From a virus (lineage: Duplodnaviria > Heunggongvirae > Uroviricota > Caudoviricetes): 16,969 nt of DNA. The notes beneath the pieces were generated by a model, which saw only the letters and a list, made by a program, of their open reading frames with translations, was not told the DNA's origin and did no database searches. Made by a program: the position numbers and the translations under genes. Below are positions 1,317 to 16,925 of this stretch, one piece after another (the stretch's first letter is position 1; each line of letters opens with the position of its first letter). The stretch is taken from the IMG/VR virus record IMGVR_UViG_2663763054_000010; one strand, written 5' to 3'.

Positions 1317-1340
1317 CCCGCTTCGGCGGGTTTTTGTTTT
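1317..1340 (+). terminator. rho-independent terminator after hok (stem CCGC-UUCG-GCGG + T-tract)
   Basis: GC stem with UUCG tetraloop followed by TTTTTGTTTTT. Confidence 0.5.
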
Positions 1341-1466
1341 TATTTTCAACGCGTTTGAAGTTTTAGATGGTGCCGGAATAGAATCAAAAATACTTAAGTA
1401 GCGCGCAGGGAGAAGAGGGATGGACCCCGAACAGGGGAGTGCTATTTATCTGGAAGGATTCTGTTG

Positions 1467-1748
1467 ATGAAAATCGAAGAATTACGTGAAATTTTTAGTG
1501 AAGATGGCCTCTATACTGTGCGCGTTGAGAATGGCGCTATTGTCAGCCACTGCCTTCCAGACTACACAATTCTGATAATTCAGCCGTCTTTGCCAGCAGG
1601 CACGGGCGGCGCTCTCACGCATTTAAATCTGATTGGTACCAGCATCCCCCATGCACTGAAGAACAGGCCGAATGGCTCATTCAGTGTTACCGCAGGCGCG
1701 GATGCGAGGTTAAAAAAGCCCTTAGCCTCGACTACCGTCACTGGATAA
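1467..1748 (+). CDS. small prophage protein (93 aa); by position possibly Rem-like (recollection of Qin order hokD-rem-ydfU, not verified)
   Basis: ORF with ATG at 1467 (track starts at TTG 1464); identical copy at 7722-8003. Confidence 0.5.
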   Translation: MKIEELREIFSEDGLYTVRVENGAIVSHCLPDYTILIIQPSLPAGTGGALTHLNLIGTSIPHALKNRPNGSFSVTAGADARLKKPLASTTVTG

Positions 1749-1823
1749 TCTCCGTCAGGCTCCCTTACTCCGAACGGCCAACGCGTCCGTCCCGCACATT
1801 CCAGCAACGGATCTGGAGGTAAT

Positions 1824-2882
1824 GTGCGGGTATTACTTCGACCTGTTCTGGTACCGGAACTCGGTCTGGTTATCGTTAAGCCAGGCCGTGAATCAATGTC
1901 AGCATTCCATAACGGCAGAATACTGGTGGAGCCGGAACCAAAAAGCATGCGTAATCTGCCGTCCGGGGTCGTTCCTGCCGCTCGCCAGCCGCTGGTGGAA
2001 GACAAAACATTGCTGCCGTTTTTCAGTAACGCACGGGTGATTCGTGCTGCTGGTGGTGCTGGTGCATTGTCTGACTGGCTGTTGCGCCATATTAAATCCT
2101 GCCAGTGGCCACACGGCGATTATCATCACAGCGAAACCGTCATTCACCGTTATGGTACCGGCGCAATGGTGTTGTGCTGGCACTGCGACAACCAGCTGCG
2201 TGACCAGACATCCGAATCACTCGAGCAACTTGCTCATCAAAACCTGTCAGCATGGATGATTGACGTCATCGGTCACGCAATAAGCGGTACGCAGGAGCGT
2301 GAATTATCTCTGGCTGAATTATCCTGGTGGGCGGTCCGCAATCAGGTGGCGGACGCGCTACCGGAAGCGGTATTACGTCGTTCGCTGGGGTTGCGTGCGG
2401 AAAAAATTCGCTCTGTGTACAGTGAAAGCGACATCATACCGGGAGAGCAGACAGCCACCAGCATACTGAAGCAGCGCACAAAAAATATTGCGTTACTGCC
2501 TCACGTCCACCAGCAACAGAACCCACCACAGGAAAAGACGGTGGTCAGCATTGCCGTTGATCCGGAGTCACCGGCTCAGTATCTCCAGCGCCAGAAATCA
2601 CAACGGGAAGAGATGCCTGTATACACGCGCTGGGTAAAAACGCAGAAATGCATGACGTGTGGCAATCAGGCAGATGATCCGCATCACATCATTGGTCATG
2701 GACTGGGAGGGATGGGAACAAAGGCTGATGATTTGTTTGTTATTCCGTTATGCCGTAAATGCCGTAACGAACTACATGCCGGAGTAAAAGATTTTGAAGA
2801 GAAACACGGCAGTCAGCTGTTGTTGCTGATTCGTTTTTTAATGCACGCGAGAAATTCGGGTGTTCTGAAGTGGAAAGCATAA
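1824..2882 (+). CDS. YdfU-like (DUF968-type) prophage protein with C-terminal HNH-like zinc-finger nuclease motif
   Basis: GTG start 4 nt after GGAGG; C-terminus CMTCGNQADDPHHIIGHGLGG...PLCRKCRNELH (CxxC...HH...CxxC...H). Confidence 0.65.
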   Translation: MRVLLRPVLVPELGLVIVKPGRESMSAFHNGRILVEPEPKSMRNLPSGVVPAARQPLVEDKTLLPFFSNARVIRAAGGAGALSDWLLRHIKSCQWPHGDYHHSETVIHRYGTGAMVLCWHCDNQLRDQTSESLEQLAHQNLSAWMIDVIGHAISGTQERELSLAELSWWAVRNQVADALPEAVLRRSLGLRAEKIRSVYSESDIIPGEQTATSILKQRTKNIALLPHVHQQQNPPQEKTVVSIAVDPESPAQYLQRQKSQREEMPVYTRWVKTQKCMTCGNQADDPHHIIGHGLGGMGTKADDLFVIPLCRKCRNELHAGVKDFEEKHGSQLLLLIRFLMHARNSGVLKWKA

Positions 2883-3263
2883 ATGACCGAGCGCATAGAA
2901 TTTGTTTTACCTTACCCGCCGACGGTGAACACTTACTGGCGTCGTCGTGGCAGCACATATTTTGTATCAAAAGCCGGGGAGCGTTATCGCCGGGCAGTGG
3001 CGCTTATTGTTCGCCAGCAGCGGCTGAAATTAAGCCTGTCCGGAAGGTTGGCAATAAAAATTATTGCAGAACCACCGGATAAGCGCCGCCGTGACCTGGA
3101 CAATATTCTGAAAGCGCCGCTGGATGCGCTGACGCATGCGGGGTTGCTAATGGACGATGAGCAGTTTGATGAAATCAATATCGTTCGTGCTCAGCCAGTA
3201 TCTGGTGGACGTCTGGGGGTGAAGATTTATCCCATAATGCTTGAAGGGCAGGTCAAAAAATGA
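2883..3263 (+). CDS. rusA: RusA-family Holliday junction resolvase (variant a)
   Basis: ATG immediately after upstream TAA; RusA signature ...PPDKRRRDLDNILKAPLDALTHAGLLMDDEQ... Confidence 0.85.
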   Translation: MTERIEFVLPYPPTVNTYWRRRGSTYFVSKAGERYRRAVALIVRQQRLKLSLSGRLAIKIIAEPPDKRRRDLDNILKAPLDALTHAGLLMDDEQFDEINIVRAQPVSGGRLGVKIYPIMLEGQVKK

Positions 3264-4006
3264 AACTGGAAGATTTACCGAAATACTACTCCCCAAAATC
3301 CCCCGGCCTGACTGATGCATCGGCCTCAACGTCGAAAGATGCGCTGAGTATCACTGATGTGATGGCCGCGCAGGGCATGACACAGAATCGGGCTGAGATG
3401 GGGGTTTCTGCGTTCCTTGGGAAAATGGGCATTAGTATGAATGACAGAGAGCGGGCAACAGAATTGCTGACAGAATATGCACTCAGTCGGTGTGATCGCG
3501 TGGCGGCGTTAAGAAAACTCCCGGCAGAAATAAAACCGGCAGTGATGCGTATTATGGCTTCGTATGCGTTTGAAGATTATGCCCGTAGCGCGGCGAGCAA
3601 AAAACAGTGCCCCTGCTGTCACGGAAAAAAATTTATTGAAAGCGAGGTTTTTACAAACAAGATCCAGTATCCGGATGGTAAGCCGCCGGTATGGGCAAAG
3701 TGTACGAAAGGTGTGTATCCGTCTTACTGGGAAGAATGGAAAAAAGTCAGGGAGGTGGTAAAAGTTGCCTGTCCGGAGTGTGGCGGAAAGGGTGAGGTTT
3801 CCACCGCCTGTAAGGATTGCCGTGGGCGTGGTGTCGCCATTCATCGTGAAGAGTCGGTAAAACGTGGTATGCCTGTTATCAGAGACTGCCAGCGTTGTGG
3901 TGGTCGTGGCTATGAAAGACTACCATCAACGGAGGCATTTAATGCTATATGCGAGGTGACAAACCAGATAACACGCGCGTCATGGGAAAAAACAGTTAAG
4001 AAATTA
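3260..4006 (+). pseudogene. Q-like late antiterminator (variant a), 3' end replaced by IS2 after codon ~249; track ORF 3260-4093 has an IS-derived tail
   Basis: Identical to 9515-10261 then diverges at the IS2 terminus TGGATTTGCCCC (4007). Confidence 0.7.
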
Positions 4007-4017
4007 TGGATTTGCCC

Positions 4018-4923
4018 CTATATTTCCAGACATCTGTTATCACTTAACCCATTACAAGCCCGCTGCCGCAGATATTCCCGTGGCGAGCGATAACCCAGCG
4101 CACTATGCGGATGCCATTCGTTATAATGCTCGAACGCCTCTGCAAGGTTCTTTGCTGCCGTTAACCCGTCTGGTTTGGGCATGATACTGATGTAGTCACG
4201 CTTTATCGTTTTCACGAAGCTCTCTGCTATTCCGTTACTCTCCGGACTCCGCACCGCCGTGTTCTTCGGTTCAAGTCCCAACATCCGGGCGAACTGGCGT
4301 GTTTCATTAGCCCGGTAGCATGAACCATTATCCGTCAGCCACTCCACTGGAGACGACGGAAGATCGTTGCCGAAGCGGCGTTCCACCGCTCCCAGCATGA
4401 CGTCCTGTACTGTTTCACTGTTGAAGCCGCCGGTAGTCACCGCCCAGTGCAGTGCCTCACGATCACAGCAGTCCAGCGCGAACGTGACACGCAGTCTCTC
4501 TCCGTTATCACAGCAGAACTCGAACCCGTCAGAGCACCATCGCTGATTGCTTTCTTTCACGGCCACTCTGCCTGTATGTGCCCGTTTCGATGGCGGTACA
4601 GCAGGTTTTCGCTCAAGCAACAGCGCATTCTGGCGCATGATCCGGTAAACACGTTTGGCATTGATCGCAGGCATACCATCAAGTTCTGCCTGTCTGCGAA
4701 GCAGCGCCCATACCCGACGATAACCATACGTGGGCAGCTCTCCGATAACATGGTGTATACGGAGAAGCACATCCGTATCATCAGTGTGACGACTGCGGCG
4801 GCCATCCATCCAGTCATCGGTTCGTCTGAGAATGACGTGCAACTGCGCACGCGACACCCGGAGACAACGGCTGACTAAGCTTACTCCCCATCCCCGGGCA
4901 ATAAGGGCGCGTGCGCTATCCAC
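4018..4923 (-). CDS. insD: IS2 transposase OrfB (InsD), 301 aa
   Basis: Protein [34 protein letters not shown]... matches recalled IS2 InsD. Confidence 0.9.
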
Positions 4924-5246
4924 TTTTTTGCCCGTCCATATTCAACGGCTTCTTTGAGGAGTTCATTTTCCATCGTTTTCTTGCCGAGCAGGCGCTGGAG
5001 TTCTTTAATCTGCTTCATGGCGGCAGCAAGTTCAGAGGCAGGAACAACCTGTTCTCCGGCGGCGACAGCAGTAAGACTTCCTTCCTGGTATTGCTTACGC
5101 CAGAGAAATAACTGGCTGGCTGCTACACCATGTTGCCGGGCAACGAGGGAGACCGTCATCCCCGGTTCAAAGCTCTGCTGAACAATTGCGATCTTTTCCT
5201 GTGTGGTACGCCGTCTGCGTTTCTCCGGCCCTAAGACATCAATCAT
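4881..5246 (-). CDS. insC: IS2 OrfA (InsC), 121 aa
   Basis: [24 protein letters not shown]... from internal ATG of track ORF 4881-5291. Confidence 0.85.
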
Positions 5247-5472
5247 CTGTACTCCAATGACTAGTCTAAAAACTAGTATTAAGACTATCACTTATTTAAG
5301 TGATACTGGTTGTCTGGAGATTCAGGGGGCCAGTCTACGGACATTTTCTGCCTGTGGACCAGGAAAGTGCACGGGTGCTTTCCACTCCCATGAAGCCCGG
5401 CAATCCGCGCAGATACAGTAATAAACGAACTGACAGCAGTAAGATGGAGCGTTTCTTTTGAACAACCAGACA

Positions 5473-6089: not shown

Positions 6090-6907
6090 AACTGGAAGAT
6101 TTACCGAAATACTACTCCCCAAAATCCCCTTGCCTGACCGATGCATCGGCCTCAACGTCAAAAGATGCGCTGAGTATCACTGATGTGATGGCCGCGCAGG
6201 GCATGACACAGAATCGGGCTGAGATGGGGTTTTCTGCGTTCCTGGGGAAAATGGGCATCAGTATGAATGACAGGGCGCGGGCAACAGAATTACTGGCAGA
6301 TTATGCACTCAGTCGGTGCGATCGTGTGGCGGCGTTGAGAAAACTTCCGGCAGAAATAAAACCGGTAGTGATGCGCATTATGGCTTCGTACGCTTTTGAG
6401 GATTATGCCCGCAGCGCAGCGAGTAAAAAGCAGTGCCCTTGTTGCTATGGGGAAAAATTTATTGAAAGCGTAGTTTTTACAAACAAGGTCCAGTATCCGG
6501 ATGGTAAGCCGCCGGTATGGGCAAAGTGTACGAAAGGTGTGTATCCGTCTTACTGGGAAGAATGGAAAAAAGTCAGGGAGGTGGTAAAAGTTGCCTGTCC
6601 GGAGTGTGGCGGAAAGGGTGAGGTTTCCACCGCCTGTAAGGATTGCCGTGGGCGTGGTGTCGCCATTCATCGTGAAGAGTCGGTAAAACGTGGTATGCCT
6701 GTTATCAGAGACTGCCAGCGTTGTGGTGGTCGTGGCTATGAAAGACTACCATCAACGGAGGCATTTAATGCTATATGCGAGGTGACAAACCAGATAACAC
6801 GCGCGTCATGGGAAAAAACAGTTAAGAAATTTTATGATGCGCTGGTGACCCGGTTTGATATTGAAGAAGCATGGGCTGAGCGGCAGTTAAAAAAGGTAAC
6901 TAGGTAA
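6086..6907 (+). CDS. Q-like late antiterminator (variant b), 273 aa with CxxC zinc-finger repeats
   Basis: ATGA overlap with rusA; CPCC..CPECGGKG..CKDCRGRG..CQRCGGRG motifs; followed by promoter + short terminator (PR'/tR' layout). Confidence 0.65.
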   Translation: MKLEDLPKYYSPKSPCLTDASASTSKDALSITDVMAAQGMTQNRAEMGFSAFLGKMGISMNDRARATELLADYALSRCDRVAALRKLPAEIKPVVMRIMASYAFEDYARSAASKKQCPCCYGEKFIESVVFTNKVQYPDGKPPVWAKCTKGVYPSYWEEWKKVREVVKVACPECGGKGEVSTACKDCRGRGVAIHREESVKRGMPVIRDCQRCGGRGYERLPSTEAFNAICEVTNQITRASWEKTVKKFYDALVTRFDIEEAWAERQLKKVTR

Positions 6908-6912
6908 CAAGG

Positions 6913-6940
6913 TTGATTTTTCCGGAATCTGTGGTAAATT
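6913..6940 (+). promoter_or_regulatory. candidate late promoter PR' (TTGATT-16 nt-TAAATT) just downstream of Q
   Basis: sigma70-like hexamers; position matches lambdoid Q/qut/PR' organisation; copies at 10342-10369 and 14901-14928. Confidence 0.35.
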
Positions 6941-6989
6941 CGTCATAACGATGGGCGTTTTATGCCTGACGTTAGAAGAGTTTCTACAA

Positions 6990-7012
6990 CCCGCCGCCGA
7001 GCGGGTTTTTTA
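6990..7012 (+). terminator. tR'-like rho-independent terminator (CCCGC-loop-GCGGG + T6)
   Basis: GC-rich hairpin plus TTTTTT about 45-60 nt downstream of the candidate PR'. Confidence 0.6.
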
Positions 7013-7131
7013 TGACTGAAATCGCGTCAGTACAGTAAACGCGCTGGTGGCGGTGAATACCTGTCTTTCAGCTTGCTGGCTTTTTCGACAAGAGTTATTG
7101 GTGTGTCACGTTAACCGGAAAAGGAAAAGAC

Positions 7132-7585: not shown

Positions 7586-7721
7586 ATTTTGTTTTTATTT
7601 TCAACGCGTTTGAAGTTTTAGATGGTGCCGGAATAGAATCAAAAATACTTAAGTAGCGCGCAGGGAGAAGAGGGATGGACCCCGAACAGGGGAGTGCTAT
7701 TTATCTGGAAGGATTCTGTTG

Positions 7722-8003
7722 ATGAAAATCGAAGAATTACGTGAAATTTTTAGTGAAGATGGCCTCTATACTGTGCGCGTTGAGAATGGCGCTATTGTCA
7801 GCCACTGCCTTCCAGACTACACAATTCTGATAATTCAGCCGTCTTTGCCAGCAGGCACGGGCGGCGCTCTCACGCATTTAAATCTGATTGGTACCAGCAT
7901 CCCCCATGCACTGAAGAACAGGCCGAATGGCTCATTCAGTGTTACCGCAGGCGCGGATGCGAGGTTAAAAAAGCCCTTAGCCTCGACTACCGTCACTGGA
8001 TAA
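7722..8003 (+). CDS. small prophage protein, copy of 1467-1748
   Basis: Identical protein. Confidence 0.5.
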   Translation: MKIEELREIFSEDGLYTVRVENGAIVSHCLPDYTILIIQPSLPAGTGGALTHLNLIGTSIPHALKNRPNGSFSVTAGADARLKKPLASTTVTG

Positions 8004-8078
8004 TCTCCGTCAGGCTCCCTTACTCCGAACGGCCAACGCGTCCGTCCCGCACATTCCAGCAACGGATCTGGAGGTAAT

Positions 8079-9137
8079 GTGCGGGTATTACTTCGACCTG
8101 TTCTGGTACCGGAACTCGGTCTGGTTATCGTTAAGCCAGGCCGTGAATCAATGTCAGCATTCCATAACGGCAGAATACTGGTGGAGCCGGAACCAAAAAG
8201 CATGCGTAATCTGCCGTCCGGGGTCGTTCCTGCCGCTCGCCAGCCGCTGGTGGAAGACAAAACATTGCTGCCGTTTTTCAGTAACGCACGGGTGATTCGT
8301 GCTGCTGGTGGTGCTGGTGCATTGTCTGACTGGCTGTTGCGCCATATTAAATCCTGCCAGTGGCCACACGGCGATTATCATCACAGCGAAACCGTCATTC
8401 ACCGTTATGGTACCGGCGCAATGGTGTTGTGCTGGCACTGCGACAACCAGCTGCGTGACCAGACATCCGAATCACTCGAGCAACTTGCTCATCAAAACCT
8501 GTCAGCATGGATGATTGACGTCATCGGTCACGCAATAAGCGGTACGCAGGAGCGTGAATTATCTCTGGCTGAATTATCCTGGTGGGCGGTCCGCAATCAG
8601 GTGGCGGACGCGCTACCGGAAGCGGTATTACGTCGTTCGCTGGGGTTGCGTGCGGAAAAAATTCGCTCTGTGTACAGTGAAAGCGACATCATACCGGGAG
8701 AGCAGACAGCCACCAGCATACTGAAGCAGCGCACAAAAAATATTGCGTTACTGCCTCACGTCCACCAGCAACAGAACCCACCACAGGAAAAGACGGTGGT
8801 CAGCATTGCCGTTGATCCGGAGTCACCGGCTCAGTATCTCCAGCGCCAGAAATCACAACGGGAAGAGATGCCTGTATACACGCGCTGGGTAAAAACGCAG
8901 AAATGCATGACGTGTGGCAATCAGGCAGATGATCCGCATCACATCATTGGTCATGGACTGGGAGGGATGGGAACAAAGGCTGATGATTTGTTTGTTATTC
9001 CGTTATGCCGTAAATGCCGTAACGAACTACATGCCGGAGTAAAAGATTTTGAAGAGAAACACGGCAGTCAGCTGTTGTTGCTGATTCGTTTTTTAATGCA
9101 CGCGAGAAATTCGGGTGTTCTGAAGTGGAAAGCATAA
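8079..9137 (+). CDS. YdfU-like protein with HNH-like motif, copy of 1824-2882
   Basis: Identical protein. Confidence 0.65.
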   Translation: MRVLLRPVLVPELGLVIVKPGRESMSAFHNGRILVEPEPKSMRNLPSGVVPAARQPLVEDKTLLPFFSNARVIRAAGGAGALSDWLLRHIKSCQWPHGDYHHSETVIHRYGTGAMVLCWHCDNQLRDQTSESLEQLAHQNLSAWMIDVIGHAISGTQERELSLAELSWWAVRNQVADALPEAVLRRSLGLRAEKIRSVYSESDIIPGEQTATSILKQRTKNIALLPHVHQQQNPPQEKTVVSIAVDPESPAQYLQRQKSQREEMPVYTRWVKTQKCMTCGNQADDPHHIIGHGLGGMGTKADDLFVIPLCRKCRNELHAGVKDFEEKHGSQLLLLIRFLMHARNSGVLKWKA

Positions 9138-9518
9138 ATGACCGAGCGCATAGAATTTGTTTTACCTTACCCGCCGACGGTGAACACTTACTGGCGTCGT
9201 CGTGGCAGCACATATTTTGTATCAAAAGCCGGGGAGCGTTATCGCCGGGCAGTGGCGCTTATTGTTCGCCAGCAGCGGCTGAAATTAAGCCTGTCCGGAA
9301 GGTTGGCAATAAAAATTATTGCAGAACCACCGGATAAGCGCCGCCGTGACCTGGACAATATTCTGAAAGCGCCGCTGGATGCGCTGACGCATGCGGGGTT
9401 GCTAATGGACGATGAGCAGTTTGATGAAATCAATATCGTTCGTGCTCAGCCAGTATCTGGTGGACGTCTGGGGGTGAAGATTTATCCCATAATGCTTGAA
9501 GGGCAGGTCAAAAAATGA
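9138..9518 (+). CDS. rusA: RusA-family resolvase (variant a), second copy
   Basis: Identical to 2883-3263. Confidence 0.85.
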   Translation: MTERIEFVLPYPPTVNTYWRRRGSTYFVSKAGERYRRAVALIVRQQRLKLSLSGRLAIKIIAEPPDKRRRDLDNILKAPLDALTHAGLLMDDEQFDEINIVRAQPVSGGRLGVKIYPIMLEGQVKK

Positions 9519-10336
9519 AACTGGAAGATTTACCGAAATACTACTCCCCAAAATCCCCCGGCCTGACTGATGCATCGGCCTCAACGTCGAAAGATGCGCT
9601 GAGTATCACTGATGTGATGGCCGCGCAGGGCATGACACAGAATCGGGCTGAGATGGGGGTTTCTGCGTTCCTTGGGAAAATGGGCATTAGTATGAATGAC
9701 AGAGAGCGGGCAACAGAATTGCTGACAGAATATGCACTCAGTCGGTGTGATCGCGTGGCGGCGTTAAGAAAACTCCCGGCAGAAATAAAACCGGCAGTGA
9801 TGCGTATTATGGCTTCGTATGCGTTTGAAGATTATGCCCGTAGCGCGGCGAGCAAAAAACAGTGCCCCTGCTGTCACGGAAAAAAATTTATTGAAAGCGA
9901 GGTTTTTACAAACAAGATCCAGTATCCGGATGGTAAGCCGCCGGTATGGGCAAAGTGTACGAAAGGTGTGTATCCGTCTTACTGGGAAGAATGGAAAAAA
10001 GTCAGGGAGGTGGTAAAAGTTGCCTGTCCGGAGTGTGGCGGAAAGGGTGAGGTTTCCACCGCCTGTAAGGATTGCCGTGGGCGTGGTGTCGCCATTCATC
10101 GTGAAGAGTCGGTAAAACGTGGTATGCCTGTTATCAGAGACTGCCAGCGTTGTGGTGGTCGTGGCTATGAAAGACTACCATCAACGGAGGCATTTAATGC
10201 TATATGCGAGGTGACAAACCAGATAACACGCGCGTCATGGGAAAAAACAGTTAAGAAATTTTATGATGCGCTGGTGACCCGGTTTGATATTGAAGAAGCA
10301 TGGGCTGAGCGGCAGTTAAAAAAGGTAACTAGGTAA
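9515..10336 (+). CDS. Q-like late antiterminator (variant a), intact 273 aa
   Basis: Same as 3260-4006 then continues with the native C-terminus ...KKFYDALVTRFDIEEAWAERQLKKVTR. Confidence 0.65.
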   Translation: MKLEDLPKYYSPKSPGLTDASASTSKDALSITDVMAAQGMTQNRAEMGVSAFLGKMGISMNDRERATELLTEYALSRCDRVAALRKLPAEIKPAVMRIMASYAFEDYARSAASKKQCPCCHGKKFIESEVFTNKIQYPDGKPPVWAKCTKGVYPSYWEEWKKVREVVKVACPECGGKGEVSTACKDCRGRGVAIHREESVKRGMPVIRDCQRCGGRGYERLPSTEAFNAICEVTNQITRASWEKTVKKFYDALVTRFDIEEAWAERQLKKVTR

Positions 10337-10418
10337 CAAGGTTGATTTTTCCGGAATCTGTGGTAAATTCGTCATAACGATGGGCGTTTTATGCCTGACG
10401 TTAGAAGAGTTTCTACAA

Positions 10419-10441
10419 CCCGCCGCCGAGCGGGTTTTTTA
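10419..10441 (+). terminator. tR'-like terminator (copy of 6990-7012)
   Basis: Same hairpin + T-tract. Confidence 0.6.
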
Positions 10442-10560
10442 TGACTGAAATCGCGTCAGTACAGTAAACGCGCTGGTGGCGGTGAATACCTGTCTTTCAG
10501 CTTGCTGGCTTTTTCGACAAGAGTTATTGGTGTGTCACGTTAACCGGAAAAGGAAAAGAC

Positions 10561-10758
10561 ATGCTAAAACAGCAGGATATGACAGAAACCGCCAGAGTGG
10601 TGTTTAATGAATTAAGCGTTACCGAACCGGCGACAGTCGGGGAGATAGCGCAGAATACTTACCTTTCACGCGAACGCTGCCAGTTAATACTGACCCAGCT
10701 GGTTATGGCGGGTCTGGCAGACTATCAGTTCGGTTGTTACAGACGCCTTCCGCAGTGA
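10561..10758 (+). CDS. small protein, copy of 7132-7329
   Basis: Identical protein. Confidence 0.45.
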   Translation: MLKQQDMTETARVVFNELSVTEPATVGEIAQNTYLSRERCQLILTQLVMAGLADYQFGCYRRLPQ

Positions 10759-10908
10759 AGGCTTTTTTATTTGTGGTAAATGGGCGGCTGGTGGGTGTTA
10801 GGGGCACCCACCAGCCATCTGCTCATGCGTTGGGTTCACAAGCAAACCTCAGGCCCACTGCTTTGCGCAAAAGCAGAATGAGCCTATCAGAGACAGGCTT
10901 AATGATCC

Positions 10909-11967
10909 ATGCTTAATACTGTAAAAATATCCAGTTGTGAGTTAATCAACGCCGACTGCCTGGAATTTATCCGGTCGTTACCCGAAAATTCTGTTGACCT
11001 GATAGTCACGGACCCGCCGTACTTTAAAGTGAAGCCTGAGGGCTGGGATAACCAGTGGAAGGGCGACGATGATTACCTGAAGTGGCTGGACCAGTGTCTG
11101 GCGCAGTTCTGGCGGGTGCTGAAACCTGCCGGAAGTCTTTACCTGTTCTGTGGTCATCGCCTGGCATCTGATATCGAAATCATGATGCGTGAACGCTTCA
11201 GTGTGCTGAACCATATTATCTGGGCGAAGCCGTCCGGACGCTGGAACGGATGCAACAAGGAAAGCCTGCGGGCGTATTTCCCCGCCACAGAGCGCATTCT
11301 GTTCGCGGAACATTATCAGGGGCCGTATCGTCCGAAAGATGCCGGGTATGCGGCGAAGGGCAGTGCACTGAAACAGCATGTGATGGCCCCGCTGATTTCT
11401 TACTTTCGTGATGCGCGAGCTGCCCTGGGGATAACGGCAAAACAGATTGCAGATGCCACAGGAAAGAAAAACATGGTGTCGCACTGGTTCAGTGCCGGTC
11501 AGTGGCAGTTGCCGAATGAAAGCGATTATCTGAAATTACAGGCGCTGTTTGCCCGGGTGGCAGAAGAGAAGCATCGGCGTGGTGAACTGGAAAAGCTCCA
11601 CCACCAGCTGGTGGATACGTATACCTCACTGAACCGGCAGTATGCGGAGCTGCTGAGTGAATATAAACATCTGCGGCGGTATTTTGGCGTGACGGTGCAG
11701 GTGCCGTATACCGATGTGTGGACGCATAAACCGGTGCAGTTCTATCCCGGGAAACATCCGTGCGAAAAACCGGCAGAAATGCTGCAGCAGATAATCAGCG
11801 CTAGCAGTCGTCCGGGTGACCTGATTGCAGATTTTTTCATGGGGTTGGGTTCGACAGTGAAAGCGGCACTGGCGCTCGGGCGTCGTGCAATTGGCGTTGA
11901 GCTGGAGACTGAACGTTTTGAGCAGACGGTTCGGGAAGTACAGGATTTAGTCAGCCAGAACGGATGA
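10909..11967 (+). CDS. DNA methyltransferase, DPPY (N6-adenine/N4-cytosine) type with beta-class motif order; no cognate endonuclease seen (orphan)
   Basis: Motif IV DLIVTDPPYF near N-terminus, motif I DLIADFFMGLGST near C-terminus. Confidence 0.8.
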   Translation: MLNTVKISSCELINADCLEFIRSLPENSVDLIVTDPPYFKVKPEGWDNQWKGDDDYLKWLDQCLAQFWRVLKPAGSLYLFCGHRLASDIEIMMRERFSVLNHIIWAKPSGRWNGCNKESLRAYFPATERILFAEHYQGPYRPKDAGYAAKGSALKQHVMAPLISYFRDARAALGITAKQIADATGKKNMVSHWFSAGQWQLPNESDYLKLQALFARVAEEKHRRGELEKLHHQLVDTYTSLNRQYAELLSEYKHLRRYFGVTVQVPYTDVWTHKPVQFYPGKHPCEKPAEMLQQIISASSRPGDLIADFFMGLGSTVKAALALGRRAIGVELETERFEQTVREVQDLVSQNG

Positions 11968-12007
11968 TATTGAAGAATTAATTACGCGTCGTTATTATGC
12001 GGCTCCC

Positions 12008-12083
12008 GGCCCTTTAGCTCAGTGGTGAGAGCGAGCGACTCATAATCGCCAGGTCGCTGGTTCAAATCCAGCAAGGGCCACCA
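12008..12083 (+). tRNA. tRNA with CAU anticodon, tRNA-Ile2 (lysidine) type, ileX/ileZ-like
   Basis: Cloverleaf: acceptor GGCCCTT/AAGGGCC, anticodon loop CTCATAA, T-loop TTCAAAT, CCA end. Confidence 0.85.
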
Positions 12084-12090
12084 TCACATA

Positions 12091-12167
12091 CCGCCATTAG
12101 CTCATCAGGAAAGAGCGCCAGCCTTCGAAGCTGGCTGCGCGGGGTTCAAGTCCCCGATGGCGGTCCA
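12091..12167 (+). tRNA. tRNA-Arg, anticodon UCG as read
   Basis: Acceptor CCGCCAT/ATGGCGG, anticodon stem CCAGC/GCTGG with loop CTTCGAA, T-loop TTCAAGT, CCA end. Confidence 0.75.
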
Positions 12168-12180
12168 TTATCTGCATCAT

Positions 12181-12257
12181 GCGTTGTTAGCTCAGCCGGA
12201 CAGAGCAATTGCCTTCTAAGCAATCGGTCACTGGTTCGAATCCAGTACAACGCGCCA
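12181..12257 (+). tRNA. tRNA-Arg, anticodon UCU (reads rare AGA)
   Basis: Acceptor GCGTTGT/ACAACGC, anticodon loop CTTCTAA, T-loop TTCGAAT, CCA end. Confidence 0.85.
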
Positions 12258-12271
12258 CACTTATTTTCCCA

Positions 12272-12300
12272 GGCTCGCTTTTGCGGGCCTTTTTTTTAAA
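12272..12300 (+). terminator. rho-independent terminator after tRNA cluster
   Basis: AGGCTCGC-TTTT-GCGGGCCT stem (one mismatch) followed by T8. Confidence 0.5.
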
Positions 12301-12514
12301 TGTCTCACAATTCAGACGGTTGACAGTTGTCTGTTTTGCGGGGAGTTTGTTAAAAGAAACTGGCATGGTGAATCCCCCTGTGCGGAGGGGCAATCAGCGA
12401 GTAGGTATATGGGATAATCGCGGATTCAGGTGCTGGTACTGAATTCACCGGGAGGCACCCGGCATCATGCAATGGCACATAGCGCCACTCTCCAGCCCTC
12501 TCCGGAGGGGCTTT
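12293..12514 (+). other. conserved ~215-bp structured non-coding element, copy 1; candidate sRNA or leader ending in a hairpin
   Basis: Near-identical to 15947-16170; several GC stems; no ORF conserved between copies. Confidence 0.3.
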
Positions 12515-12744
12515 TCTGTGCCGGATACATCACAGTTTCTGGAACCTTAGGTACTACAGTATCAGTCAGGGTGCTATATTTTCAGATGTGATGAAAGCCT
12601 GTCAGCAGGCAGGGCGTATCGGAAATGACCCAGTAGAGAAAACGTTGACTCAGATACCGGTGCTGAGTTACCGGGAAACCGGCATCACATGACCGCTATC
12701 CTGAGGTGTACTGGCAATAGCGGACACTACCATTTGTTCTTTTT

Positions 12745-13563
12745 TTAAGCAGCCATCTGATGATATTTTTCCCTGAAGGCTGCCGGGGAGATATTCCCCA
12801 GACGAGAGTGACGACGCTGACGATTGTAGAAAATCTCAATGTATTCCCGTATTACTGAGATGGCTTCATCCCGGTTATTAAAACGATAGTGGCTCAGGCT
12901 CTCATTTTTCAGCGTTCCCCAGAAGCTTTCCATCGGAGCGTTGTCGTAACAGTTACCTTTACGCGACATTGATGTTTTCAGACCAGACTGCTCCTGTATG
13001 ACCCGGTAATCGTATGCGCAGTACTGTGAACCTCGATCAGAGTGGTGGATTAGCCCGGCAGGTGGGCGCTGGCTCCTGAGCGCCATAAACAGGGCTTTAC
13101 CTGTCAGCTCTTTTGTCATGCGCTCTCCCATGGCGTAGCCGACAATTTCGCACGTATAAACATCTTTGATGCCAGCGAGGTACAACCATCCCTCCTGTGT
13201 GGCAACATACGTCAGGTCCGCCACCCAGACCTGATTTGGTGCTGTAGGAGCGAACGTCTGGTTCAGCAGATTTGGCGCAACTGGCAGATTGTGGTTCGAG
13301 TTCGTAGTCGCTCTGAACTTGCGTTTCTGCTTACAGCGTAGCCTTAGCTCCTTACGAAGACGTGCCAGTCGGTCACGACCAACGATGATGCCATTCTCTG
13401 CCAGCTCCGTCTGGAGCCGCCGGGTTCCATATGTTTCGCGAGTGCGGATATGTGCCACCTTAATCTCCAGTTTTAGCCGCTCATCACTTTGTTTTCTGTC
13501 TGAGGGTTCATGCTGTACCCAGTTGTAATAACCGCTCCTGGATACACCAAATACCTGACACAT
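12745..13563 (-). CDS. IS3-family transposase OrfB (DDE integrase-like), 272 aa from first in-frame Met
   Basis: Recalled IS3-family OrfB features; normally expressed as an OrfAB frameshift fusion. Confidence 0.85.
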   Translation of the reverse strand: MCQVFGVSRSGYYNWVQHEPSDRKQSDERLKLEIKVAHIRTRETYGTRRLQTELAENGIIVGRDRLARLRKELRLRCKQKRKFRATTNSNHNLPVAPNLLNQTFAPTAPNQVWVADLTYVATQEGWLYLAGIKDVYTCEIVGYAMGERMTKELTGKALFMALRSQRPPAGLIHHSDRGSQYCAYDYRVIQEQSGLKTSMSRKGNCYDNAPMESFWGTLKNESLSHYRFNNRDEAISVIREYIEIFYNRQRRHSRLGNISPAAFREKYHQMAA

Positions 13564-13598
13564 CGCTTCAATGGGAAATTGTTGTCGCCATTGTTCGA

Positions 13599-13842
13599 TT
13601 AACGCGTATTTTTCAGCGACTCCTGTGCAAAATACGCTGTTGCTTTTTTTAATATATCTCGCTCAAGGCGAGCTTCATTTAACGCCTTACGCAGTTGCAG
13701 AATTTCAGATTCCAGTTCAGCCACCGTGCGGGAACCAGGAGTACCGAGCCCTTTTCTGGCGGCGGTAACCCATTGTCCTAAAGTGCCTTCAGGAAGAGAT
13801 AATCGGGAAGCGCCTTCACTGATCGAAAGTTGATTTTCAAAG
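13599..13842 (-). pseudogene. IS3-family OrfA, C-terminal part only (...ENQLSISEGASRLSLPEG...ILKKATAYFAQESLKNTR)
   Basis: Track ORF 13599-14000 is chimeric: 3' part is orfA, 5' part is antisense rusA. Confidence 0.7.
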
Positions 13843-14084: not shown

Positions 14085-14936
14085 AAACTGGAAGATTTAC
14101 CGAAATACTACTCCCCAAAATCCCCTTGCCTGACCGATGCATCGGCCTCAACGTCAAAAGATGCGCTGAGTATCACTGATGTGATGGCCGCGCAGGGCAT
14201 GACACAGAATCGGGCTGAGATGGGGTTTTCTGCGTTCCTGGGGAAAATGGGCATCAGTATGAATGACAGGGCGCGGGCAACAGAATTACTGGCAGATTAT
14301 GCACTCAGTCGGTGCGATCGTGTGGCGGCGTTGAGAAAACTTCCGGCAGAAATAAAACCGGTAGTGATGCGCATTATGGCTTCGTACGCTTTTGAGGATT
14401 ATGCCCGCAGCGCAGCGAGTAAAAAGCAGTGCCCTTGTTGCTATGGGGAAAAATTTATTGAAAGCGTAGTTTTTACAAACAAGGTCCAGTATCCGGATGG
14501 TAAGCCGCCGGTATGGGCAAAGTGTACGAAAGGTGTGTATCCGTCTTACTGGGAAGAATGGAAAAAAGTCAGGGAGGTGGTAAAAGTTGCCTGTCCGGAG
14601 TGTGGCGGAAAGGGTGAGGTTTCCACCGCCTGTAAGGATTGCCGTGGGCGTGGTGTCGCCATTCATCGTGAAGAGTCGGTAAAACGTGGTATGCCTGTTA
14701 TCAGAGACTGCCAGCGTTGTGGTGGTCGTGGCTATGAAAGACTACCATCAACGGAGGCATTTAATGCTATATGCGAGGTGACAAACCAGATAACACGCGC
14801 GTCATGGGAAAAAACAGTTAAGAAATTCTATGATGCGCTGGTGACTCGGTTTGATATTGAAGAAGCATGGGCTGAGCGGCAGTTAAAAAAGGTAACTAGG
14901 TTGATTTTTCCGGAATCTGTGGTAAATTCGTCATAA
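14082..14936 (+). CDS. Q-like late antiterminator (variant b), 284 aa; an 8-bp deletion removes the normal stop and adds an 11-aa tail
   Basis: Same as 6086-6907 apart from a few substitutions; ...AGGTAACTAGGTAACAAGGTTG becomes AGGTAACTAGGTTG; ORF runs through the PR' -35/-10. Confidence 0.6.
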   Translation: MKLEDLPKYYSPKSPCLTDASASTSKDALSITDVMAAQGMTQNRAEMGFSAFLGKMGISMNDRARATELLADYALSRCDRVAALRKLPAEIKPVVMRIMASYAFEDYARSAASKKQCPCCYGEKFIESVVFTNKVQYPDGKPPVWAKCTKGVYPSYWEEWKKVREVVKVACPECGGKGEVSTACKDCRGRGVAIHREESVKRGMPVIRDCQRCGGRGYERLPSTEAFNAICEVTNQITRASWEKTVKKFYDALVTRFDIEEAWAERQLKKVTRLIFPESVVNSS

Positions 14937-14977
14937 CTATGGGCGTTTTATGCCTGACGTTAGAAGAGTTTCTACAA

Positions 14978-15000
14978 CCCGCCGCCGAGCGGGTTTTTTA
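14978..15000 (+). terminator. tR'-like terminator (third copy)
   Basis: CCCGC-loop-GCGGG + T6. Confidence 0.6.
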
Positions 15001-15038
15001 TTGCGGAATTAATTACGGACCGTTATTATTCTGCTCCC

Positions 15039-15114
15039 GGCCCTTTAGCTCAGTGGTGAGAGCGAGCGACTCATAATCGCCAGGTCGCTGGTTCAAATCC
15101 AGCAAGGGCCACCA
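15039..15114 (+). tRNA. tRNA (CAU), Ile2-type, second copy
   Basis: Identical to 12008-12083. Confidence 0.85.
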
Positions 15115-15121
15115 TCACAAA

Positions 15122-15201
15122 CCGCCATTAGCTTATCAGGAAGAGCAGACGACACGATAACAGGGTTGTTGGTGCGGGGGCGGGTCCCCGATGGCGGTCC
15201 A
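15122..15201 (+). pseudogene. degenerate tRNA (tRNA-Arg-like ends, anticodon arm and T-loop disrupted)
   Basis: Acceptor and D-arm as in 12091-12167, but the middle has no anticodon stem and the T-loop is GCGGGT. Confidence 0.55.
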
Positions 15202-15214
15202 TTATCGGTATTCA

Positions 15215-15291
15215 GCGTTGTTAGCTCAGCCGGACAGAGCAATTGCCTTCTAAGCAATCGGTCACTGGTTCGAATCCAGTACAGCGCGCCA
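15215..15291 (+). tRNA. tRNA-Arg (UCU), second copy, with one acceptor-stem change giving a U-G pair
   Basis: Same as 12181-12257 except ACAGCGC for ACAACGC. Confidence 0.8.
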
Positions 15292-15401: not shown

Positions 15402-15755
15402 TTGATTGAGTGTTTGTTATACGGTCTAATGGTTTTTTCAGCATTAAATATTTATCATTCATATGGTGTGGGTAGAGTGAATATTGATGAGGCGTCGGGG
15501 TGTTTCATCCTTAGGCAGCGTATTGATATAGTCAATGCAGCACGAGCAAAGGCCTTCAGCCGTTTGACAGTTTTGTTCTGTACTCCTGATCGTCTTTCGG
15601 GAAGAGACGTTATTATTCTGAATAGTGATGCTATACAGAGGGTTTGCGATGAGTTCATGGTTGCTAATTCAGAATTATTTGCTCTTGTTCAGGAGTACAA
15701 CAGAATAGCCAGGACCTGTGGTATGGATGAACTTCGGATTACTCATCTGGGGTAG
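15402..15755 (+). CDS. hypothetical protein in AT-rich cargo region; start codon uncertain (track start is TTG)
   Basis: 117-aa ORF; no recognisable motif. Confidence 0.3.
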   Translation: MIECLLYGLMVFSALNIYHSYGVGRVNIDEASGCFILRQRIDIVNAARAKAFSRLTVLFCTPDRLSGRDVIILNSDAIQRVCDEFMVANSELFALVQEYNRIARTCGMDELRITHLG

Positions 15756-15946: not shown

Positions 15947-16170
15947 TTTTTAAATACTTCACAATTCAGGCGGTTGACTGTTGTCTGGTTTGCGGGGAGT
16001 TTGTTAAAAGAAACTGGCATGGTGAATCCCCCTGTGCGGAGGGGCAATCAGCGAGTAGGTATATGGGATAATCGCGGATTCAGGTGCTGGTACTGAATTC
16101 ACCGGGAGGCACCCGGCACCATGCAATGGCACATAGCGCCACTCTCCAGCCCCTCTCCGGAGGGGCTGTT
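15947..16170 (+). other. conserved structured non-coding element, copy 2
   Basis: Aligns to 12293-12514 with scattered substitutions; ends in perfect hairpin AGCCCCTC-TCCG-GAGGGGCT. Confidence 0.3.
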
Positions 16171-16202
16171 TATATTGATTTTGTCAGATGTGAGTAAACT
16201 CC

Positions 16203-16538
16203 TTATGGACTTTGTTGTTTTAGTCCATAAGGACATATTTGCAGAGTGCAACGGTTATTAAAGCATTCATTCAATACGTTATCTGTATTTGTAGGGCATT
16301 CCTGGCTATTTTTGATTGAATTCCAGAATGTTTTATTGAATGGTACTACGTTGTAAATGGTTACAGGTAGCACTTTGTTATTGAGCATGATGCCTGTGTG
16401 AGTCAGTGTAAATATACTTTCAGGAGGTAAGAAAGCATCCGATTGATACCAGATTATTAATTTTATTTTACTCCATATGACTGAAAAAGATATTCCGCAT
16501 GATGGCTGGATAACTGTATCAATCACAATCCACTTCAT
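16203..16538 (-). CDS. hypothetical protein (111 aa) in AT-rich region
   Basis: ORF only; 3' end coincides with a perfect inverted repeat (about 16202-16232). Confidence 0.25.
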
Positions 16539-16797
16539 TTAGTTTCCTTGTTTATGCCTTGCTGGTGATGTTCTGAAAAGTATAAATGATATTTTTGAAT
16601 GTAAACCATAGAGCAGAATTATTTTTCTGATGTTGTTTATTGTTTATTTAAATGCAGGGTGGTTTATATCTCGTCTTGTAGTTTATCCATGCATATCTGC
16701 TTGATAATCAGGTTTTTATTTAAGGTATGGTTTTGTGTTTTTTCTGTATTACATGTCAGGTATTTTAAAGAATTATTTTTCAGATGGTGGAAAGAAC

Positions 16798-16925
16798 CAT
16801 GGCATTTAAACACTATGATGTTGTCAGGGCGGCGCCGCCGTCAGATCTTGCGGAAAAGCTGACACATAAACTGAAAGAGGGCTGGCAGCCGTTTGGTAGT
16901 CCGGTGGCCATAACCCCTTATACCC
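16798..16925 (+). pseudogene. 5' part of a small prophage gene (MAFKHYDVVRAAPPSDLAEKLTHKLKEGWQPFGSP...), interrupted by the IS end
   Basis: GGTGGAAAG RBS before ATG 16798; frame runs into the IS terminus at 16926; motif resembles recalled DUF1737-type proteins (uncertain). Confidence 0.4.

Follow-up and report, generated by a model that had tools for sequence, protein, structure and literature searches.

Three transfer RNA (tRNA) genes lie close together in a 16,969-nucleotide (nt) stretch of viral DNA (IMG/VR record IMGVR_UViG_2663763054_000010; Duplodnaviria, Heunggongvirae, Uroviricota, Caudoviricetes), which is referred to in its entirety as the window. A preliminary description, made from the sequence alone, likened them to the ileZ-argN-argO trio that Shiga toxin (Stx)-converting phages carry between the late antiterminator gene Q and the stx genes, and remarked on the lack of a toxin. 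The locus raises the question of what such an island represents when no toxin accompanies it, and whether it could still serve translation. It is very probably the ileZ-argN-argO operon of lambdoid (Stx-type) phages, situated in the Q-dependent late unit of a defective prophage of the type found in Shigella sonnei, and having the decoding role that has been proposed for it. Much of this is already known: the 1999 annotation of phage 933W includes the operon, its promoter, its terminator and a suggested role in rare-codon decoding, and the same tRNA genes have been labelled by the NCBI Prokaryotic Genome Annotation Pipeline (PGAP) in thousands of genomes. Positions given below are those of the window, and features lie on the forward strand, unless stated otherwise.

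The tRNA genes and their transcription signals

ARAGORN identified five tRNA genes in the whole window, three of which form the island: ileZ (12008..12083, anticodon CAU), argN (12091..12167, tRNA-Arg with anticodon UCG) and argO (12181..12257, tRNA-Arg with anticodon UCU). The Rfam tRNA model RF00005 scored these at 72.5, 58.0 and 70.1 bits respectively, against a gathering score of 29. Both programs thus agree with the trio at 12008-12257 as first described, and ARAGORN returned no anticodon that differed from those originally read. The order CAU, UCG, UCU within about 250 bp is that of ileZ, argN and argO, and the same trio is given by ARAGORN on phage 933W, phage PhiR49_2 and Escherichia coli ATCC 11775.

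The CAU gene is labelled as tRNA-Met by ARAGORN, because the lysidine modification is invisible to the program. Its identity with K-12 ileX extends over 68 of the 76 positions (89%), including the whole anticodon arm, and the pairs C4-G69 and C5-G68, which are determinants for TilS, are present. E. coli copies of ileZ that are 96-99% identical are annotated as tRNA-Ile by PGAP, and the 933W record names the gene ileZ with the description 'codon recognized: AUA'. Judged by its sequence, then, the gene is an Ile2-type tRNA rather than a tRNA-Met body, as had been proposed at the outset, and its product would be expected to carry lysidine and decode AUA. Both ileZ and argO are 100% identical to the genes of the Stx2-converting phage Stx2a_1447, while argN differs from its counterpart there at four positions, all within the D-loop and T-loop. 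A clean cloverleaf is obtained for argN from free-energy minimisation alone, and A20 and C35 are both present. To our knowledge, the arginine anticodons of K-12 comprise only ACG (four copies), CCG, UCU and CCU, with UCG absent. The third gene, argO, is a paralogue of K-12 argU and is predicted to read AGA, and possibly AGG.

The three genes appear to be transcribed as a self-contained operon of approximately 330 bp (11968-12299). A promoter scan placed a putative sigma-70 promoter, pT, at 11970..11998, consisting of TTGAAG and TATTAT separated by 17 nt and followed by a G+C-rich discriminator; it aligns with the 933W feature 'pT; putative tRNA promoter', and its -10 hexamer is unchanged across four aligned islands. 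A terminator scan located an intrinsic terminator at 12271..12297, with an 8 bp G+C-rich stem and a run of eight T residues, which aligns with the 933W feature 'possible rho-independent terminator upstream of the stx genes'. Between 11940 and 12300, identity to 933W is around 95% through promoter, tRNAs and terminator. The trio is, by these predictions, an operon with its own promoter and rho-independent terminator. The features of 933W used in these comparisons were taken from the annotation of GenBank record AF125520, which lists pR', qut, two terminators/tR', pT, ileZ (AUA), argN ('CGH; CGG?'), argO ('AGA; AGG?') and the terminator preceding stx.

Upstream of the operon lies a gene for a late-gene antiterminator Q of 273 amino acids (9515..10336), a homologue of lambda Q with an additional zinc-ribbon insert; the two proteins are 32% identical over their full length (BLASTP, E 4e-41), and the identical Q copy at 3260-4093 and the paralogues match Pfam PF03589 (Antiterm) with E values of 1e-45 to 1e-55. 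Directly 3' of the Q stop codon is a PR'-like late promoter (10342-10369; TTGATT-16 nt-TAAATT), succeeded by a lambda-like pause element, AACGATGGG, read from the sequence at 10376-10384, and a tR'-like intrinsic terminator found by terminator scan at 10417-10444. The arrangement TTGATT-16-TAAATT-N6-AACGATGGG of the window compares with TTGACT-17-TAAATT-N6-AACGATGGG in lambda, from which 10342-10444 is inferred to hold a PR', a sigma-70-dependent pause element and a tR'. Two small open reading frames (ORFs) and an N6/N4 DNA methyltransferase gene (10909..11967; 352 amino acids; Pfam PF01555, E 8e-42) separate Q from the tRNAs, the latter gene being directly upstream of the operon. The same methyltransferase gene precedes ileZ in Stx2a phages, in many of which the order is Q, methyltransferase, tRNAs. 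The original placement of the island downstream of Q is therefore right as to position, but the two are not adjacent. Since Q and a lambda-like PR'/tR' stand upstream, the tRNA operon should fall within a Q-dependent late unit; esterase and holin genes follow downstream in the uninterrupted locus of S. sonnei 53G, whilst in the window this order is interrupted by a copy of IS600.

The PR' region forms part of a 119-nt repeat, found at 6902-7020, 10331-10449 and 14890-15008, after three of the four Q genes in the window. Each copy holds a lambda-like PR' with a TAAATT -10 hexamer, a pause element and a terminator; the pause element is AACGATGGG in the first two copies and AACTATGGG in the third. 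The leader RNA predicted from this repeat would be about 70 nt long, which we take to be comparable to the short late transcripts of the 6S/StxS type.

The cargo site downstream of the operon

The preliminary description had the tRNA genes followed by a non-coding element and then an insertion sequence (IS), and this succession holds. The former is a prophage small RNA (sRNA) element of the STnc100 family (12334..12523; Rfam RF02076, 123.6 bits against a gathering score of 47), which has a conserved TTGACA upstream (12320-12325) and its own terminator hairpin; the latter is IS600, from 12702. Elements in this part of the window are thus ordered Q, PR'/tR', methyltransferase, tRNAs, STnc100-family sRNA, IS600. 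A second STnc100-family element is present at 15988..16177 (132.4 bits), and both matches span positions 1-206 of the model.

Only the STnc100 element and the tRNAs were recovered between the tRNA genes and the IS by a permissive Rfam search, which included AsxR, AgvB and other RNA families. In 933W, the anti-sRNA AsxR (RF02703) lies on the opposite strand and abuts the 3' end of STnc100 (3485-3537 of the 933W stretch compared); neither AsxR nor AgvB was matched anywhere in the window at permissive thresholds. The possibility that STnc100 is itself the PR'-tR' leader belonging to this type of Q was considered and rejected, as the PR', pause element and tR' are found directly after Q, approximately 2 kb upstream of STnc100.

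Between the operon terminator and the upstream region of STnc100 is an interval of about 7 nt (12298..12304), the site occupied by stx2AB (approximately 1.3 kb) in 933W and Stx2a_1447. Homology to these Stx2 phages continues through the argO terminator, ends past its T-run and returns at TCACAATTCAG...TTGACA, a sequence located 3' of stxB in the phages. The stx2AB genes of 933W and Stx2a_1447 are placed exactly between the argO terminator and STnc100, which directly follows stxB in both. Across the whole window, tblastn with Stx2A and Stx2B and word-7 blastn with the 1.3 kb cassette produced matches at chance level only, and no stxA and stxB pair was found between the island and the lysis region, where a Stx-converting prophage would carry it. 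The statement that toxin genes are absent is borne out by these searches, and alignment to the tRNA regions of Stx phages reveals a true homologue without any stx remnant downstream.

On this alignment, the window is the empty state of the stx2AB slot. The slot is likewise empty in S. sonnei 53G, PhiR49_2 and ATCC 11775, and it contains a TerB-family ORF and a DUF3927 ORF in a second island of the window, in E. coli 03_3469 and in E. coli TB4019. The site after the operon terminator is a variable cargo ('moron') slot that may be empty, hold TerB/DUF3927 genes or hold stx. Such a site had been anticipated in the suggestion of a stx-minus relative or a landing pad for alternative cargo, and both terms are apt, in that the stx2AB site is empty here and otherwise loaded elsewhere; 'stx-minus' should, however, be taken to mean that the slot was never loaded, or at least not detectably so, and not that the toxin was lost. 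Fixing the Stx2 cargo slot to the nucleotide, at 12298-12304, is useful for scanning genomes for sites that are empty, stx-loaded or otherwise loaded.

Among 5426 complete E. coli genomes, 3061 contain the 333 bp operon, at a total of 7597 places and as many as 13 in a single genome, as against 740 places in 599 genomes for stx2AB, the one toxin type counted. The toxin-free island is approximately ten times as common as the stx2-linked one, and is the rule rather than a curiosity. Given that over half of the genomes have the island, and that the same order is seen in the type strain, the toxin-free state is ordinary; the unusualness implied by the preliminary description is thus contradicted, and documentation of the toxin-free form as the common one has little weight as a discovery.

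Decoding role and competing explanations

Codon usage in the prophage ORFs of the window was calculated as 15.3 ATA, 7.7 AGA, 5.4 AGG, 14.0 CGG and 3.2 CGA per 1000 codons. The corresponding averages for the E. coli genome are around 4, 2, 1.5, 5.5 and 3.5 per 1000. The toxin gene stx2A includes 15 ATA and six AGA among its 319 codons. These counts support the idea of rare-codon supply for ileZ and argO.

Were the operon to function as proposed, pT would provide basal transcription in the lysogen and, on induction, RNA polymerase modified by Q would be expected to read through from PR' into the operon. TilS would convert the ileZ product to a lysidine tRNA reading AUA, and argO would decode AGA and possibly AGG, while argN is predicted to read CGA by Watson-Crick pairing and CGG by wobble. 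The trio might thereby make more decoders available for codons that the host seldom uses and that phage genes, along with the cargo they carry, over-use 2.5- to 4-fold.

A second, partly decayed island, absent from the preliminary description, was found by ARAGORN and alignment at 15039..15291. Its ileZ (15039-15114) is identical to that of the first island and its argO (15215-15291) differs by 1 nt, while the argN position is occupied by a pseudo-tRNA (15122-15201) that keeps the acceptor and D arms and has scrambled anticodon and T arms. The islands differ by 13% overall, yet their ileZ genes are identical, which suggests purifying selection on the tRNA bodies. The middle unit was not detected as a tRNA by Rfam even at E<=0.1, and its interpretation as a tRNA with an unusual anticodon was rejected on account of this, the lack of U33, an 'anticodon' loop of 3 nt and a T-loop of 6 nt. 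The same decayed unit, with 1 nt different, recurs in E. coli 03_3469.

The second island stands directly after another Q/PR'/tR', in a layout like that of 933W and lacking the methyltransferase. It is separated from the second STnc100 element by about 700 bp of cargo, comprising a TerB-like ORF (15402-15755) and a DUF3927 ORF; the gene content of this cargo was taken from the homologous S. sonnei locus and from E. coli relatives. No Pfam domain was found in the 117-residue product of the ORF at 15402-15755, for which the label 'TerB family' comes from the PGAP annotation of relatives. The middle position varies elsewhere too. In E. coli TB4019, it is filled by a tRNA-Lys with anticodon UUU (2596-2672 of the stretch compared) on argN-like acceptor, D and T arms, which differs from 12091-12167 of the window as though a swap had been confined to the anticodon arm. 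Islands annotated by PGAP include the variants Ile+Lys+Arg, Ile+Arg, Ile+Lys and Ile-only.

Several of these observations weigh against the decoding role. The codon usage check that had been suggested for AUA, AGA and CGA came out as expected for ATA and AGA, which are over-used in prophage genes, but not for CGA: the Watson-Crick codon of argN occurs 3.2-5.3 times per 1000 in the ORFs of the window and in the late genes of S. sonnei 53G and PhiR49_2, against approximately 3.5 in the host. The argument from codon supply therefore depends, for argN, on CGG alone, which is its weak point. The middle tRNA is moreover dispensable in nature, being decayed in both the second island and 03_3469. Furthermore, the late genes that would be clients of the operon are mostly gone from the window, with IS600 lying 440 bp downstream, and any present benefit would have to go to the host or to other prophages.

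The condition of the prophage could mean that the island is a dead remnant, with tRNA genes that are neither expressed nor useful and that decay has not yet reached. The prophage is indeed heavily degraded: IS600 has intruded close by, neither lysis nor structural genes of this prophage occur in the window, and in the sister island both the middle tRNA and the terminator are already gone. This is nevertheless considered unlikely, in view of the canonical tRNA features retained by all three genes of the first island (58-72 bits), the intact pT and terminator, the identity of ileZ and argO to the genes of inducible Stx2 phages, and the preservation of ileZ between two islands whose surrounding DNA has diverged. 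A doubtful proposal in the other direction is that the islands have been domesticated, or that the middle position is a swappable anticodon cassette (Arg-UCG, Lys-UUU or none) shaped by tRNA-targeting toxins. Domestication would account for ileZ and argO having been kept intact, identical or 1 nt apart, in two IS-wrecked prophage remnants of S. sonnei-type genomes; if true, the islands would be selected extra decoders of AUA and AGA for the A+T-rich virulence genes of Shigella, which are rich in rare codons. Arginine and lysine tRNAs are classical targets of anticodon nucleases, and the alternation of Arg-UCG here and Lys-UUU in TB4019 on a single scaffold, together with the lack of CGA enrichment in the client genes, which weakens the case for argN as a codon supplier, might indicate that the main service of the island is not codon compensation but insurance against such nucleases, examples being colicin D, which attacks tRNA-Arg, and PrrC-type enzymes, which attack tRNA-Lys. 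On this view, the phage would supply substitute tRNAs able to evade cleavage or to refill the pool. By contrast, ileZ and argO match the two rarest host decoders, their codons are over-used in phage genes and stx2A, and no anticodon nuclease gene was seen nearby; insurance as the principal function is accordingly judged improbable.

As little credit can be given to the view that the locus once carried stx and subsequently lost it. In S. dysenteriae type 1, an IS600-flanked stx region has been described as undergoing tandem amplification and deletion, and a copy of IS600 does lie just downstream of the island in the window. However, terminator and STnc100 meet at a clean junction in which no bases derive from stx; the same empty junction is shared by the unrelated hosts and phages named above, in S. 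sonnei 53G without an IS; and islands that are empty or otherwise loaded outnumber stx2-loaded ones about tenfold. Many prophages integrate into tRNA genes, so that the trio might alternatively be host genes that served as attB, with the prophage inserted alongside. A 2026 preprint on the Pas sRNAs has taken tRNA matches flanking PasA and PasC to be insertion hot spots in this manner (10.64898/2026.05.13.724894). This explanation was rejected and its probability is minimal, because the genes belong to the interior of the prophage: their place is mid-way through the late region, with Q/methyltransferase on one side and the sRNA-esterase-holin block on the other, rather than at a prophage end; no integrase is adjacent; the island is found inside packaged or complete phage genomes (933W, PhiR49_2); it is present at up to 13 places per genome; and UCG is generally known not to be a host anticodon. 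Matches to tRNAs beside prophage sRNAs of this kind are thus phage-borne genes, not integration scars. A phage operon of the late unit, with a decoding role that is best supported for ileZ and argO, is the reading retained here.

Genomic surroundings and relation to known systems

Several close matches place the prophage among those of the S. sonnei type. An exact copy of the methyltransferase protein is encoded by S. sonnei chromosomes, that of 53G (HE616528) among them; the segment of the window that holds the island, 7587-13840, is 99.95% identical to this S. sonnei locus; and the DNA flanking the island is 99.95-100% identical to S. sonnei chromosomes. The copy of IS600, an IS3-family element on the reverse strand (12702..13840), comprises 1139 of about 1264 bp, begins 178 bp after STnc100 and is fused at its far end to the middle of a RusA gene from another prophage remnant. 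It was identified through the PGAP label 'IS3-like element IS600 family transposase', Pfam HTH_Tnp_1 and rve domains, and the presence of orfA and orfB, and it is 99.9-100% identical to S. sonnei copies. Relative to 53G it is a simple insertion, and it occupies the same site in other S. sonnei genomes. In 53G, no IS600 follows the tRNAs; two tandem STnc100 copies (11426-11615 and 11893-12102 of the 53G stretch compared) are instead found between argO and the esterase gene, which is of NanS-p type and is followed by a holin gene. In other S. sonnei genomes, as in the window, IS600 sits between two STnc100 copies.

As a whole, the window combines, as a mosaic, parts of two S. sonnei prophage remnants whose positions in reference genomes are approximately 0.66 Mb apart, with junctions at 4005/4006, 7586/7587 and 13840/13841. 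Four RusA-Q modules are present, and the segments 1332-4005 and 7587-10260 are 100% identical. Two of the junctions do not coincide with IS ends: at one, the methyltransferase gene is cut after about 106 nt, and at the other IS600 is cut at 1139 bp and joined to mid-RusA. ORFs spanning 4005/4006 and 7586/7587 were not on record in the public collections searched, and the 39-mers across 13840/13841 and 7586/7587 were absent from the metagenome and genome collections searched. The mosaic reflects either a rearrangement particular to the strain or a chimeric assembly.

Other elements are dispersed through the remainder of the window. A hok/sok type I toxin-antitoxin module at 921-1246 consists of a sok RNA (RF01794, 112 bits) and a Hok/Gef ORF (1034-1246), and precedes the DUF968-RusA-Q block, an arrangement shared with Qin-type E. 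coli prophages. An IS3-family element at 4006-5336, with a 136-residue orfA and a 301-residue orfB on the reverse strand, looks IS2-like from its ORF sizes; it cuts the first Q copy at 4005 to produce a chimeric ORF of 277 residues. The homologous copy in S. sonnei references is itself split by an IS21-type element that is absent from the window. Between the second STnc100 element and the start of a truncated esterase gene (DUF1737, 16659-16862) is an ORF of 111 residues on the reverse strand (16203-16538). A match to PmrD (PF11183) is on record for the identical S. sonnei homologue, while our own Pfam scan of the ORF gave none, and it is very rich in ATA, with six among 111 codons.

The STnc100/PasD family (RF02076) has been placed upstream of the sialate esterase-holin block (10.64898/2026.05.13.724894). 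It has this position in the uninterrupted locus of S. sonnei 53G as well, although there it is present in two tandem copies, and it belongs to the neighbourhood of the island rather than to the tRNA operon.

The closest parallels to the island itself are the Stx2 phages 933W (AF125520) and Stx2a_1447 (AP012536), in which the three genes, their order and their anticodons are all as in the window, and which likewise have them after Q/PR' and ahead of STnc100, a NanS-p esterase and the lysis genes. They differ from the window in having stx2AB between the terminator and STnc100, and in that the window prophage is defective and cut by IS600. The Q protein of the window is of the long lambda type, unlike that of 933W, and the methyltransferase gene between PR' and pT, complete in the window and in Stx2a_1447, is represented by only its 3' end in 933W. 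Toxin-free relatives are equally similar. E. coli ATCC 11775 matches at 96.7% identity over 2.4 kb and has, in order, hokD, DUF968, RusA, Q, orf65, methyltransferase, tRNA-Ile, tRNA-Arg and tRNA-Arg, with no toxin; the same toxin-free module is found in the same order in many extraintestinal pathogenic E. coli strains (S88, IHE3034 and UM146 among them), and the stx-free phage PhiR49_2 shares the empty slot and STnc100. The stx-free E. coli prophages keep the holin and lysozyme genes downstream, whereas the late region of the window is interrupted by IS600 and rearranged. With regard to the tRNAs of the host, argO resembles K-12 argU in general design and has the same anticodon loop, and ileZ and argO are predicted to read the same codons as ileX and argU, respectively. 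By contrast with K-12 ileX and argU, ileZ and argO are phage-borne extra copies under their own promoter, and argN is without a K-12 counterpart.

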